DNA from: Gemmatimonadales bacterium
Lineage (GTDB): Bacteria > Gemmatimonadota > Gemmatimonadetes > Gemmatimonadales > GWC2-71-9
Length of the DNA stretch: 64,000 nt
Direction: 5' to 3'
Assembly (NCBI GenBank): GCA_041613315.1
Contig: JBFJHJ010000002.1
Coordinates: 1-64,000, forward strand
Each line of letters starts with the position of its first letter. Position 1 is the first letter of the stretch. Below, piece by piece: positions 1-3,000 of the stretch. The position numbers are program-made.

Positions 1-3000
1 CTCGGTTGTTGCGCCGGAGACCGACGGCGGCATCGGTGTGACACAAGCTCCAACGCGGGCCGCCGCGCCCCCATTCCCCAGGAGGTGGGTCATGGGACTG
101 CTCGCATCGCTGGCAGTGGGATTGGGCCTTGTCGTGAGCACAGCTGCGGCCGCATCGGCACAGGTCCAGCCCGGCGGCGTCACGCTTGCCATCGTCGGCG
201 GCGTGTACACCTTCAACGAGTTCCAGGGAGACACGGATGTCCTTGTCGGGATTCGGGTCGGTCGCAACGCCAGCGAGCGGTTCGGCTTCGAGTTCTCGCT
301 CGACATGATCCCCACCGGGGAGGGCACGACGGTGCTGGGGTATCACGCCAATGCGGTGTTCTATCTCGCACGGGGCGCGCGGGCCGCGCCGTTCGCAACG
401 GTCGGGCTCGGCGGCGTCACGTTCACCGTGACTTCCCCGAGACGCGGGTCGCCGCGGTCGCCGGACTCGGCCTCAAGGCGTTTGCCACCGACCGATGGGG
501 TATCAGGGTCGAGGCGCGAAACCGGATCTACGAGATCTTCGACGACGTGATCAACGACTTCCACTTGACCGCCGGGGTGGACGTGCAATTCTAGCGCCGT
601 CGCCTTGCCCACGCCGGCCGGCGCCTCCACCTTATGCGCCGTGAAAAGGAGGGGTGGCCGGGCGCACATGTGGCACGAACCAGGAGGAGAGAATGGTCCC
701 GCTGCTTTCGCTGTGGCTGCCGATCCTGCTATCGGCCGTAATCGTGTTCGTGGTCAGCTCCATCGTTCACACGGTGCTCACCTACCACCGCTCCGACTTC
801 CGTCCGGTCCCGTCCGAGGACCAGGTGATGGAGGCGCTCCGCCGATTCAACATCCCTCCCGGCGACTACGTGATTCCCTGTGCGGCTGGGCAGCAGGAGA
901 TGAAATCACCCGCGTTCATCGAGAAGGTGACCAAAGGGCCGGTCGCCTTCATGACCGTCATGGAGAGCGGTCCGCCGTCCATGGGAAAGAGCCTCGTGCA
1001 GTGGTTTCTGTACTGCGTGATCGTCAGCGTGTTCGCCGCCTACGTCGCGGGCCGCGCGCTCGCCCCGGATGCCGCCTACCTGGAGATCTTTCGTTTTGCG
1101 GGCGCCACCGCGTTCGCGGGCTACGGTCTCGCGCTGTTGCAGAACTCGATCTGGTACAAGCGCGCATGGAGCGCGACACTCAAATCCACCTTCGACGGCC
1201 TGGTGTACGGACTGCTGACCGCCGGCACGTTCGGGTGGCTGTGGCCGTCCTGACGGCGCTTGCGTACAGGAGGACCAATGGCAACGCAGCACCGGGATCA
1301 GCGGCCGAATATCTTTCCCGCGCTCCGCTACGAGGACGCGCCGGCTGCCATAGAGTGGCTCGGCAACGCGTTCGGCTTCGAGCAGCAGATGGTGGTCCCG
1401 GGACCTGACGGGACCATCGCGCACGCGCAGCTGCGATTCGAATCCGGCGTCATCATGCTGGGATCGGCCGACCACTCGCCGCGGACGACGAACCCGTGGG
1501 CGACCGTGAAGCAGGGGGTGTACGTCTACGTCGCGGATGTGGATGCCCACTACGAGCGGGCGAAAGCCGCCGGCGCGGAGATCGTGCGTGAGCTCCAAGC
1601 GACCGAGTACGGCTCGCGCGAGTACTCGGCCCGGGATACCGGGGGACATTTGTGGAGCTTCGGAACCTATCGTCCCGAAACATGAGGACGGCTCACCCGC
1701 CCTGCCCCAGATGGTGGCGCCCGGGCGCGTGCTGACGACGCTGACTGGAGCCGCCGACTGATGGACGCGCCGGCATCTGCGGACATCGATGCGCGCCTGC
1801 GGTACCATGTGTACGAGACGACGCTCCAACGCGGCTCGCCACCGTCGGTGGCCGAGCTGCGCCATGCCACCGGACTGTCGATCGAGGTGGTGCGGGCCGG
1901 CCTGGCACGGCTGGCCGCCGGGCGTGTCCTCGTTCTACAGCCGCAGAGCGGCGAGATCTTGATGGCCAATCCGTTCTCCGCCGTCCCGACCGCGTTCGTG
2001 GTCGAAACGCCGTCCTACGCGACGTTCGGCAACTGTATCTGGGACGCCCTGGGCATCCTCGCCATGCTACGCGCGCCCGGCCGGATACGCACTGCCTGCG
2101 GCTGCTGCGGGGAGGCGATGGACGTGGTCGTGACGAACGGCGAGCTGGCGGCCGCGGCCGGCGTCGTTCATTTCGCCGTTCCGGCCAGCCGGTGGTGGGA
2201 GGACATCGTCTTTACCTGAAAGACGATGCTGCTCTTCCGGTCGGAAGCACACGTCGAGCGATGGGTGCGGCAGTGGCAGCTGCCTCGAGGAGCGGTCCTG
2301 TCCCCTCAGCAGGCCTGGCGGCTGGCGGAGGCGTGGTACGGACCCGACCGGCGGCCCGCCGAGTGGCGGCGCCGCACCGTGGACGAGACCGAGGCCGTCC
2401 TTGCGGAGCTCGGCCTCACGGGACCGTATTGGAGCTTGCGCCGTTCGCCCGGCGACTCGTGAGCGTGCGGGGCCGAGTGCGCATTCGGCGGACGCCGGGC
2501 CGACCGAGCCGATGCCCGTGATTCTCGAAACGCCGCGCCTGGTCCTCCGGGAGCTGAACGGTGCGGACCTGGATTTCGTGGCCGATATGCTGGCGGACCC
2601 AGATGTCATGCGGTTCTCCCCGGCGCCGTATACGCGTGCCGAGGCCGGCCGCTGGATCGAGCGCCAACAAGCGCGGTACGCACGCGACGGCCAGGGGCTC
2701 TGGCTCGCCGCCGCGCGGTCAAACGGCGAACCGCACGGCACGGTCGGCCTGTTGTGGCAGGACGTCAACGGGGCGCGGGAGCCGGAGGTCGCCTACGTGT
2801 TGCACCGGCCGTATTGGGGAGAGGGTCTGGCCACCGAGGCGGCGCGCGCGACGCGTGACTATGCGTTCGCCACGCTGGAGGTGCCGCGCGTGGTCTCACT
2901 CGTGCGCCCGGACAACCCGTCCGCCCAGGCGGTCGCGCGCAAGCTGGAAATGACCATCGTCGGCCGGGCGCCGCACGATGGCGTCGAACATCTGGTTTTC

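Follow-up and report, generated by a model that had tools for sequence, protein, structure and literature searches.

Why two neighboring reading frames should each encode a part of the organomercurial lyase MerB, one on either side of a TGA codon, is the question raised by this locus. It lies near the start of the window, the whole stretch of 64,000 nucleotides from a Gemmatimonadales bacterium that was analyzed. The first-pass annotation of this genome had proposed that the two frames are a single gene in which the TGA, positioned where MerB has its catalytic Cys159, is read as selenocysteine (Sec). Our analysis points the same way. We put the probability that the UGA is decoded as Sec within a MerB-type active site, leaving the identity of the substrate out of the claim, at roughly 0.85, and Sec decoding of codon 153, taken by itself, appears very probable indeed.

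A single MerB-like gene across an in-frame TGA

The MerB-like gene occupies positions 1761-2462 of the forward strand and comprises 233 codons, from the ATG at 1761 to codon 233 at 2457-2459. Translation of this frame yields a first open reading frame (1761-2219) of 152 residues that terminates at the TGA at 2217-2219, the predicted Sec codon for residue 153 and the equivalent of MerB Cys159. Beyond this codon the frame stays open until the true stop, a second TGA at 2460-2462. Annotation splits the gene into pieces of 152 and 78 residues, and neither piece is a complete MerB domain: on its own the first matches positions 1-80 of the 126 positions of the Pfam MerB model (55 bits), the same break-off as reported before, and the second matches positions 88-126 with 23.3 bits, below the cut-off of 27. 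Full coverage is reached only when both halves are joined across the TGA, the read-through product matching PF03243 over model positions 1-126 of 126 with 98.8 bits against a gathering cut-off of 27. Likewise, a profile scan of the organism's own genome places a MerB domain at 1974-2342 with one TGA inside, and the product aligns from end to end with 77 read-through homologues. The open frame and the complete Pfam match thus bear out the proposal that the two annotated genes are one gene of 233 codons, and we consider it confirmed that 1761-2462 is a single MerB-like gene with an in-frame TGA.

Conservation of the TGA and of the frame beyond it

If the TGA has a function in this gene, it should recur in relatives, and the earlier claim of an in-frame stop that is always TGA at the same column holds in two fetches. 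Among 80 loci first retrieved from GTDB genomes, 79 reach the site (L095 stops short of it, and L078 breaks off 2 nt beyond it), and all 79 have TGA at the site column. A second fetch, for which a Cys-form protein (P0013) served as query, returned only TGA loci (80/80), so that together the codon is TGA in 159 of 159 site-reaching loci and never TAA or TAG. In the species genomes covered by the two fetches, these loci represent 145 distinct genomes from 13 named phyla; as labelled in the genome records, the carriers are mostly soil metagenome-assembled genomes (MAGs) of Actinomycetota, Chloroflexota, Acidobacteriota and Gemmatimonadota. The source genome is itself a draft MAG (52 contigs, 82.9% complete), which might raise the suspicion of a pseudogene or of an assembly or sequencing error, but the same TGA recurs in all these genomes, flanked on either side by conserved protein and followed by a C-terminus of 71-81 codons, which refutes this explanation.

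The part of the protein that follows the TGA is conserved as well. In 75 of the 77 loci that reach the downstream stop, 71-81 codons separate it from the TGA, the exceptions being L068 with 113 and L072 with 40, and residues F159, W168 and L188 are invariant in the 77 read-through homologues. It could be argued that the TGA is nonetheless a genuine stop, followed by a restart at the ATG at 2226, giving a protein of 152 residues and another of about 75, perhaps as a split MerB-like protein that lacks Cys159. This scenario gains some credit from the position of that ATG, a nearly invariant codon (Met156) 6 nt after the TGA, and from the 150-residue product that gene callers yield everywhere. However, Thr155, which lies between the TGA and this first possible start, is Thr in 71 of the 77 homologues and is encoded by ACG (46), ACC (17), ACA (7) or ACT (1). 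Since Thr155 is maintained through four synonymous codons upstream of the next ATG, the frame must be translated across the stop. The exclusive use of TGA also speaks against termination, as does its location, which coincides exactly with the column where 54 full-length homologues have the catalytic Cys. A covarying GGUC hairpin downstream and the presence of SelA in all carriers tested, both described below, add to the case, and we regard a genuine stop as very improbable.

The relatives also reveal how Sec and Cys forms relate to each other. A protein search gave 1724 matches; among the best 120, the majority have a length of about 150 residues, in agreement with the claim that database homologues are mostly cut at this length. 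Four full-length matches have C, S, S and W in this position, reproducing the set of one Cys, two Ser and one Trp noted earlier. Out of 155 homologues aligned, 80 break off precisely at the site and 54 continue through it with a Cys there; a few full-length homologues show S, Y, H or A instead. A Cys sister clade of 80 loci has TGC or TGT at the site. The tree built from 142 N-terminal parts intermixes Sec-type with Cys-type members, with at least 15 changes between them, 5-7 of which are forced by starred branches. The proposed Sec clade is thus not a pure one but a mixed Sec/Cys subfamily. The motif T/N-U-K proposed for it requires a similar adjustment. In the 159 loci U is preceded by T or N, in rare cases by S or A, and never by Cys, whereas the K that follows U in the window copy is not constant, the family having K, R, S, A, G, T, Q or M at this position.

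A SECIS-like hairpin downstream of the TGA

In bacteria, a SECIS element of the type found in E. coli fdhF is a hairpin located soon after the UGA whose apical loop contains G and U. The first-pass annotation had described a covarying hairpin with a GGUC loop at nucleotides 16-33, counted from the T of the TGA. In the register of the family, this hairpin maps to 2232-2249 of the forward strand: a stem of 7 bp (2232-2238 with 2243-2249), which begins 12 nt after the TGA, and a GGUC loop (2239-2242). On the alignment the description is well supported. Across 78 sequences, 96.8% of the cells are paired, versus 44.9-61.1% when the partner is slid, and there are 27 double-sided changes, a figure met by none of 500 shuffles. 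The closing pair of the hairpin is CG in 49 cases, UA in 10, GC in 3 and AU in 1, and the loop-adjacent pair CG in 61, UA in 12 and AU in 1. All seven pairs are formed in 63/78 and 70/80 TGA loci, and the GGTC loop is present in 74/78 and 78/80. Synonymous sites within the hairpin are almost frozen: codon entropy is 0.13 for Leu158 versus 1.49-2.36 for other Leu columns, 0.0 for Phe159 versus 0.64-0.92 for other Phe columns, and 0.28 for Arg160 versus 1.56-2.17 for other Arg columns.

The weak part of the description is the window copy itself, which ranks among the two weakest hairpins of the 78. It has GAAGCA in place of GAAGAG, and in register it forms five of the seven pairs (2234-2238 with 2243-2247). 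Its minimum free energy (MFE) form has 3 bp, a 2-nt bulge and 4 bp, with 2236-2238 pairing with 2243-2245, 2230-2233 pairing with 2246-2249 and C2234 and U2235 bulged. Taken alone, the window copy is no better than chance (z = -0.5 versus shuffles). The 80 loci of the Cys clade with TGC or TGT are without the hairpin, most commonly forming 3-4 of the 7 pairs and having a GGTC loop in 0/80, a comparison that is confounded because the amino-acid sequence at the hairpin codons differs too. A search of Rfam over 2150-2350 returned nothing relevant, only two chance matches to miRNAs (E 0.78 and 8.9).

Like bacterial SECIS elements, the family hairpin is intracoding, has its stem 12 nt past the UGA and presents GGUC in the apical loop. 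Unlike the typical element, the stem is short (7 bp) and mostly lacks a conserved bulge. SelB is predicted to bind the hairpin. If the hairpin acts in this way, SelB carrying Sec-tRNA(Sec) would bind it, and the ribosome would insert Sec at the UGA (2217-2219) instead of terminating.

A second hairpin was considered and rejected. It pairs 2205-2212 with 2220-2227, encloses the UGA in its loop and has 9 bp in the MFE structure of the window copy. Its cells are paired in 83.2% across the 78 sequences, a percentage reached by 463 of 500 shuffles; its covariation does not exceed that of shuffles, and its third-codon pairs are open in about 40%. We regard it as a side effect of codon conservation at I-V-F and K-T-M.

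Selenocysteine machinery of the genome

Decoding of UGA as Sec requires dedicated factors, and the statement that this genome has tRNA-Sec, SelA, SelB and SelD holds for all four by profile scores. The tRNA-Sec gene, with anticodon TCA, lies on another contig (C24:12673-12765; 77.2 bits), and the proteins score 521.9 (SelA), 328.7 (SelB) and 370.7 bits (SelD). The selD gene, encoding selenophosphate synthetase (TIGR00476), is located in the window at 62857-63789 on the forward strand and itself contains one TGA. This in-frame TGA (62887-62889) is followed by a hairpin of 7 bp with a GGUCU loop, so that the genome provides its own point of comparison: stem length and loop resemble those of the GGUC hairpin of the MerB-like family.

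SelA was also found in 5/5 other carrier genomes examined. In a sample of the phylum, in which 11% of the genomes have the TGA form, SelA is present in 22/22 TGA-form genomes versus 159/201 overall, but this co-occurrence is statistically weak, given that SelA occurs in 79% of the sample and that the genomes are related to one another.

Predicted fold and active site

Three parts can be distinguished in the product. The N-terminal domain (residues 7-64; 1779-1952, forward strand) appears winged-helix-like: Pfam GntR matches it with 22.3 bits, under the cut-off of 27, HTH_15 matches weakly, and in the structural model it consists of helices 6-24, 30-37 and 41-53. The MerB catalytic domain (PF03243; residues 72-194; 1974-2342, forward strand) spans the TGA. 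The C-terminal tail (residues 195-233; 2343-2459, forward strand) extends beyond the Pfam MerB model and has conserved motifs of its own, D-R-R-x-P-x-W-R-R-R-T and G-L-T-x-x-F-W, in which R197, R203, G218, F223 and W224 are nearly invariant among the 77 homologues. The AlphaFold model of the product (pLDDT 94.3, pTM 0.90) contains a helix at 207-216 and keeps a high pLDDT up to about residue 230.

The active site of MerB is accounted for residue by residue. Profile alignment places NCiWD on WCAlD of MerB, so that Cys92 (codon TGT, 2034-2036, forward strand) and Asp95 (codon GAC, 2043-2045, forward strand) correspond to Cys96 and Asp99; both are invariant (77/77). Among the 80 representatives that are truncated at the site, the Asp95 column is D in 79 and E in one (P0183). 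The TGA column aligns with the single Cys of the MerB C160S structure (3f2g, 'FCSHVHFF') and with 'tCK' of MerB2, which together with the profile alignment supports the original assignment of the TGA to the Cys159 column and of Cys92/Asp95 to Cys96/Asp99. MerB Cys117 aligns with the nearly invariant Cys113 of the family; in most members this residue belongs to a C113-x-x-C116 motif, position 116 being Cys in 69 of 77. In a Foldseek search with the model, ranks 1-11 are all MerB or MerB2 (E 1.3e-10 to 4.5e-6), and there is no other strong match; ranks 12 and below are winged helix-turn-helix regulators that cover only about 60-80 columns. The alignments of ranks 1-11 extend over 188-198 columns and include the N-terminal domain, which is why we conclude that the N-terminal domain of MerB itself shares the winged-helix-like shape. 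Alignments and model together show a product with the MerB fold and the full catalytic triad, in which a predicted Sec153 replaces the second cysteine.

Relationship to canonical MerB and to SaoL

With canonical MerB (R831b, PDB 3F0P/3F2G) and MerB2 of Bacillus megaterium (5C17), the product shares the full-length PF03243 match, the fold and the alignment of the triad. It differs from canonical MerB (EC 4.99.1.2) in scoring far under the cut-offs of the MerB models NF009710 and NF033555 (values below), in having a TGA codon (predicted Sec) instead of Cys159, in lacking adjacent merA, merR, merT and merP genes, and in its additional tail (residues 195-233) and frequent C113-x-x-C116 motif.

MerB-like enzymes in which Sec occupies the Cys159 site are known already, namely SaoL of the SAO locus (Haft and Gwadz, 10.1101/2022.07.06.499078). 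SaoL is defined by C-U, with one CC exception reported; its carriers are described as exclusively anaerobic; and its neighborhood comprises nine genes, including SaoB, SaoP, SaoC, SaoT and SaoE. The present family resembles SaoL in its MerB fold, in the UGA at the Cys159 position, in the retained equivalents of Cys96 and Asp99 and in database entries that are truncated at the UGA. It is thus conceivable that the locus encodes a divergent member of the SaoL family rather than a second kind of MerB-like selenoprotein, particularly since fold and position of the predicted Sec are the same and all 77 homologues match the SaoL model NF040728 at E <= 0.001 (best 6.8e-16 among the other 76). However, the read-through product scores only 28.6 bits against this model (cut-off 140), aligned over residues 11-131 only, and the MerB model NF009710 scores higher (40 bits, cut-off 193); both values agree with those given earlier, and NF033555 gives 25.5 bits (cut-off 200). 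In SaoL as described, U is preceded by Cys and followed by about 50 residues, whereas the family has T or N before U and about 80 residues after it. Cys forms are frequent in the family (54 of 155 aligned), in contrast to the single CC exception, and the carriers, from soil and groundwater according to genome-record labels and mostly soil MAGs, contrast with the anaerobes in which SaoL is described.

Genomic context separates the two as well. There is neither the nine-gene SAO neighborhood nor any conserved neighborhood around the family, the largest cluster of neighbors occurring in 6/80 loci, and neither SaoB nor SaoC turned up in the organism's own genome (82.9% complete; no positive control matched). 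A search with NF040728 of the genome of locus L192, labelled Clostridia, and 210 genomes of its class gave 0 matches, again with no positive control matched. Scores, motif and context thus agree with the view that this is not SaoL and that no SAO-type locus surrounds it. Membership in the SaoL family appears unlikely to us. The predicted selenoprotein belongs to a subfamily distinct from canonical MerB and from SaoL, set apart from the latter by HMM scores, motif and context only.

Possible functions

What such a protein would do is less certain than how its gene is read. If the enzyme works like MerB, for which the odds seem about even, the Sec153 selenolate and the Cys92 thiolate would clamp the metal of an organometallic substrate, and protonation of the leaving carbon by Asp95 would cut the carbon-metal bond. 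That the substrate is an organomercurial is doubtful. The Hg-Se bond is very strong, so that release of the product would probably be a problem. Moreover, a canonical Cys-form MerB is encoded elsewhere in the genome, on contig C7, where it immediately follows a MerA-like gene, and because of this merA-merB pair the paralogue at 1761-2462 need not act on mercury.

The neighborhood offers little guidance. In the window, the gene is accompanied by genes for an OMP beta-barrel, a membrane protein, a glyoxalase/VOC protein, a GNAT protein and an AlkZ-like protein. Across the family, no mer, SAO or other metal-handling genes were detected by Pfam among 118 flanking ORFs, a set taken from 148 candidates with 30, mostly the longest, left out. 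The flanking ORFs are functionally heterogeneous, and a few glyoxalase/VOC and GNAT neighbors occur as in the window.

It is possible, though less so than a MerB-like reaction, that the protein is Sec-decoded yet not a carbon-metal lyase, and that it serves instead as a metal- or selenium-binding carrier, a sensor or a thiol-selenol redox protein. A carrier or sensor would use the Cys92/Sec153 pair, and the N-terminal winged helix would confer a regulatory role. The lack of mer or transporter neighbors is compatible with such a role, as are the extra C113-x-x-C116 in most members, the family-specific basic and conserved C-terminal tail, the GntR-like N-terminus (at a score below the cut-off) and the canonical MerB that the genome already has beside MerA. 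However, the winged-helix-like N-terminus is likewise a feature of MerB itself, and the proton donor Asp95 is present in 77/77 Sec forms and retained as D or E in 80/80 truncated representatives, a conservation that fits catalysis rather than mere binding. A MerB-type reaction seems to us the better guess of the two. The broader proposal of a Se-dependent organometal lyase outside mer operons, widespread in soil and groundwater bacteria, must be rated as rather unlikely.

Should such an enzyme demethylate methylmercury or cut other carbon-metal bonds at trace levels, it would amount to an unrecognized Se-dependent turnover of organometals in soils, relevant to how the selenium and mercury cycles are connected there, and annotation would miss this route, since all copies are cut off at the Sec codon. 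Switching between Sec and Cys, which recurs within the family, would provide a natural series to gauge the contribution of Sec to carbon-metal bond cleavage, and a natural Sec/Cys pair of enzymes would be tractable for testing the effect of selenium on bond chemistry and product release.

Coverage in the literature and in databases

In the literature searched, no text describes this MerB-like Sec family. The claim that SaoL is the only MerB-like selenoprotein in print holds for the texts searched, but is qualified by the supplement of Peng et al. (2016), which has an entry 'Organic mercuric lyase MerB2, 17 organisms'. The legible part of the table in a 2026 catalogue of prokaryotic selenoproteins does not list the family, and no model in NCBIfam release 20.0 covers it. 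The main text and four supplements of the GOS study of 2008 contain no MerB entry; two reviews nonetheless cite this study for a 'MerB-like' family. In the databases, mis-annotation is systematic: the gene appears as a 150-residue 'organomercurial lyase' or hypothetical protein together with a small orphan ORF. Correction would put right gene models of soil MAGs by the hundreds, and phyla whose use of selenium has seen little study would gain a selenoprotein.

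A single gene across the in-frame TGA

The MerB-like gene at 1761-2462 (+) of the window was annotated as two. Its first ORF (+, 152 aa) runs from ATG 1761 to the TGA at 2217-2219, and past this codon the same frame stays open until it meets another TGA at 2460-2462. The 78-aa ORF as called (+) starts at ATG 2226 and shares the frame of the 152-aa ORF. In Pfam, the 152-aa piece matches positions 1-80 of the 126 positions of MerB (PF03243) with 55 bits and the 78-aa piece positions 88-126 with 23.3 bits, short of the 27-bit cut-off, whereas the read-through product matches positions 1-126 with 98.8 bits. 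A single MerB domain has been split between the two calls, as the first-pass annotation had claimed. Its sub-threshold NCBIfam scores were reproduced as well: no model is matched above threshold, the protein scoring 40 bits against MerB NF009710 (cut-off 193), 28.6 bits against SaoL NF040728 (cut-off 140) and 25.5 bits against NF033555 (cut-off 200).

The TGA is shared by relatives, again in agreement with the earlier claim. Contigs fetched from one genome per species gave 80 loci, and all 79 that reach the site carry TGA at this column, preceded by W-W-x-[DN]-I-V-F-[TN]; a second fetch, with a Cys-form homologue (Cys codon at the site) as query, gave TGA in 80 of 80 loci. With repeats of the same isolate removed, both fetches represent 145 genomes: 61 from Actinomycetota, 31 from Chloroflexota, 23 from Acidobacteriota, 10 from Gemmatimonadota, 5 without a phylum name and the rest from nine further named phyla. 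Three loci are irregular around the site: L095 stops short of it, L078 stops 2 nt past the TGA, and L073, from a member of the Rubrobacteraceae, has an odd insertion following it. In L073 the usual hairpin has given way to a longer, different inverted repeat and the frame is disrupted; this is a variant element or else an artefact of assembly.

Where the downstream stop is reached, 71-81 codons follow the TGA in 75 of 77 loci. The exceptions are L068 (6001-6774), whose 113 codons point to loss of the stop or to a frameshift close to the end, and L072, probably frameshifted, with extra in-frame TGAs and a remainder of 40 codons. Past the TGA, F159, W168 and L188 are invariant in the 77 read-through homologues, and T155, M156, S161, E162, G177, A189, W192, R197, R203, G218, F223 and W224 are nearly so. 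The most telling evidence for translation past the TGA is codon 155, which sits downstream of the TGA but ahead of ATG 156, the first codon at which translation could restart. Thr is kept there in 71 of 77 homologues through synonymous codons (ACG 46, ACC 17, ACA 7, ACT 1), which means that codon 155 is read as protein, and this requires that the TGA is passed through.

The TGA at the catalytic position of MerB

When a profile built from the 77 read-through homologues was aligned to solved MerB structures, the family's 'NCiWD' fell opposite MerB 'WCAlD', that is, Cys96 and Asp99, and 'ftCktmllF', in which C is the TGA, fell opposite 'FCSHVHFF' of the C160S mutant 3f2g, a stretch whose sole cysteine is Cys159. 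MerB2 (5c17, E 3.6e-19) has 'tCK' at the TGA column. These alignments identify Cys92, Asp95 and residue 153 as the counterparts of the MerB triad and uphold the assignments made earlier; the gene is one frame, with a TGA under selection at the catalytic column. The fold is also that of MerB: an AlphaFold2 model from the 77-row alignment (mean pLDDT 94.3, pTM 0.90) retrieved MerB2 and MerB chains at ranks 1-11 in a Foldseek search of the PDB (E 1.3e-10 to 4.5e-6, query TM 0.45-0.63 over 188-198 columns), followed only by winged-helix regulators on the N-terminal 60-80 residues at E > 0.1. The family also has a C-x-x-C motif at window 2097-2108 (codons 113-116): the nearly invariant Cys113 lies opposite MerB Cys117 in the profile alignment, and Cys116, present in 69 of 77 homologues, is without counterpart in MerB or MerB2.

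A SECIS-like hairpin after the TGA

The alignment of 78 sequences (the window and 77 loci, with L073, L078 and L095 left out) contains a 7-bp stem that pairs nt 16-22 with nt 27-33 (numbering starts at the T of TGA) and encloses a GGUC loop. Pairing is found in 96.8% of 532 cells; shifting the 3' partner by 1-3 columns lowers this to 44.9-61.1%. On the true register, 27 cells have changed on both sides, a number equalled in 0 of 500 shuffles. The closing pair joins the first base of a Leu/Phe/Val/Ile codon with the third base of a Glu/Asp codon and occurs in all four Watson-Crick combinations (CG 49, UA 10, GC 3, AU 1), while the loop-adjacent pair shifts from C-G to U-A in 12 sequences, the same 12 in which Arg is replaced by Trp (CGG to TGG) and a Ser codon changes synonymously to match (TCG to TCA). 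Near-frozen synonymous sites are confined to the hairpin: Leu158 has a codon entropy of 0.13 bits, against 1.49-2.36 for the remaining conserved Leu columns, and the values are 0.0 for Phe159 (other Phe columns 0.64-0.92), 0.28 for Arg160 (other Arg columns 1.56-2.17) and 0.73 for Ser161 (Ser73 1.69).

All seven register pairs are formed in 63 of 78 loci of the first set and 70 of 80 of the second, and the GGTC loop is present in 74 of 78 and 78 of 80. As a control we used a Cys-codon sister clade of 80 loci, mostly from cultured and uncultured Actinomycetota (TGC 70, TGT 10), which has 1-7 register pairs (mode 3-4) and the GGTC loop in 0 of 80, a contrast that is supportive but not clean, since the protein sequence at those codons differs too. 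The window's own hairpin is among the two weakest of the 78: GAAGCA in place of GAAGAG leaves five contiguous pairs or, in the minimum free energy (MFE) structure, 3 bp separated from 4 bp by a 2-nt bulge. The first-pass proposal of a hairpin at nt 16-33 stands on the alignment and not on the window's own copy, which folds no better than shuffles (z = -0.5); the basis of the putative element is comparative, not thermodynamic.

A second hairpin, with the UGA in its loop (window 2205-2227), was rejected because its covariation, despite 83% conservation, does not exceed that of shuffles. It arises where the I-V-F codons before the TGA reverse-complement the K-T-M codons after it over 8-9 bp.

Selenocysteine machinery in the genome and phylum

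The genome (2.63 Mb, 82.9% complete) encodes the Sec machinery, as previously noted: tRNA-Sec (77.2 bits, anticodon TCA by ARAGORN), SelA (521.9 bits), SelB (328.7 bits) and SelD (window 62857-63789, +, 370.7 bits). The selD gene is broken by its own in-frame TGA at 62887-62889 ('...SHGAG-TGA-ACKLG...'), followed in the MFE structure by a 7-bp stem with a GGUCU loop starting 29 nt from the U of UGA, and, judged by its sequence, is itself a selenoprotein gene. The covarying hairpin of the MerB-like gene has the same loop. A formate-dehydrogenase-like molybdopterin oxidoreductase (L101, G000:C10:60592-61860, +, PF00384 250.3 bits) has one in-frame TGA ('...NCSRA-TGA-HAPTV...') and GGUC twice in the following 25 nt, where reading the sequence, not MFE folding, makes a GGUCU-looped stem possible.

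All 5 further carrier genomes that were tested have a SelA match above cut-off. The phylum was sampled evenly with 201 genomes (including the unpublished G062 and G162, counted nowhere else). Of these, 25 have a family match at E <= 1e-20, and in 22 of the 25, with 23 loci, the match contains exactly one TGA; SelA is present in every one of the 22. SelA occurs in 159 of the 201 genomes, and the TGA form in 0 of the 42 without it. Since SelA is common and the sampled genomes are related to one another, the co-occurrence amounts to consistency rather than proof. One sampled genome, G103, holds two TGA-form copies (C84:9917-10564 and C40:6291-6938).

A mixed Sec/Cys subfamily

Searched exhaustively, a set of 1.84 billion cluster representatives yielded 1698 matches at E <= 0.001. 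Among the best 150 of these plus five full-length matches from a further protein search (155 in total), 80 end exactly at the site, 54 span it with Cys, 3 with W (TGA called under another code), 2 with S, one each with Y, H and A, and 4 with a gap; 9 end elsewhere. Cys92 is kept in 80 of 80 forms ending at the site, with D at position 95 (one E), and the Cys forms have D or C at 95. A quick maximum-likelihood tree was built from 142 N-terminal parts, after removal of rows that end elsewhere or have under 120 residues ahead of the site, with the genome's own canonical MerB as outgroup. Sec and Cys states are interspersed in this tree, with at least 15 changes, 5-7 forced by starred branches. 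What had been described as a selenoprotein clade thus does contain Sec-type members, but is a mixed Sec/Cys subfamily rather than a pure Sec clade. Mixed membership is usual for selenoproteins. The large Cys-only sister clade in Actinomycetota (L188-L267; Streptomyces, Agromyces, Nonomuraea, Actinomadura and Pseudonocardia included) has the motif M-W-D-D-V-V-H-T-C-x-H-Q-R-L-F-C and further cysteines past the site.

Possible function and relation to SaoL

We put the probability that the TGA is decoded as Sec at about 0.93; insertion would be SelB-dependent. Perhaps the enzyme performs MerB-type protonolysis, in which Sec153 and Cys92 would hold the metal and Asp95 would supply the proton. The odds of carbon-metal lyase chemistry appear even, and organomercurials are a rather doubtful natural substrate. 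Sec has a lower pKa than Cys and a higher affinity for soft metals, so it would favour capture of a scarce substrate and hinder product release; more speculatively, the basic tail at the C-terminus and the C113-x-x-C116 motif particular to the family may assist the release step.

The finding of a Sec-type MerB-like family is real and well supported, and it introduces no new principle, as Sec at Cys159 of a MerB-like enzyme already has precedent. SaoL, the published MerB-like selenoprotein, carries a C-U motif whose U corresponds to Cys159, extends about 50 residues past U, and lies within the nine-gene SAO locus of anaerobes (Haft and Gwadz, bioRxiv 10.1101/2022.07.06.499078). SaoL is the sole MerB-like entry in the accessible portion of a 2026 catalogue of prokaryotic selenoproteins, and a term search for MerB found no mention in the main texts of BSepDB (plus one supplement), deep-Sep and SelCysML. 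The GOS 2008 text and four supplements hold no MerB-like entry, though two reviews cite GOS 2008 for such a family. The supplement of Peng et al. 2016 lists an 'Organic mercuric lyase MerB2' selenoprotein family in 17 unnamed organisms, a listing that may refer to SaoL or may also cover the present family. SaoL and the present family are of the same kind, yet the latter is separate from SaoL by score, motif, tail, context and carriers; it reaches far more widely across aerobic soil lineages and is mis-annotated throughout databases.

Genomic neighbourhood and a canonical paralogue

The separation from SaoL and the lack of an SAO-type locus, both proposed earlier, are borne out by the flanking ORFs, among which Pfam found no mer or SAO genes (118 of 148 ORFs). 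The SaoB and SaoC models had no match in the genome, 82.9% complete, and none in any control genome either. Across the 80 loci, no neighbour family occurs in more than 6. In the window, the neighbours are a glyoxalase/VOC protein (1260-1685), a GNAT acetyltransferase (Acetyltransf_3, 2512-3045), an OMP beta-barrel protein, a membrane protein and an AlkZ-like glycosylase; glyoxalase/VOC and GNAT genes recur beside the gene in a few unrelated loci (L032, L033, L034), far too rarely for a conserved neighbourhood. On contig C7 of the same genome (L097), a MerA-like ORF (90-1223) ending in ...KLSCCAA immediately precedes a canonical Cys-type MerB (1213-1989; 258 aa, with 'TWCAWD' and 'RSFCHF'). Besides this ordinary merA-merB pair, the genome therefore carries the selenoprotein as a paralogue outside the mercury-resistance operon.
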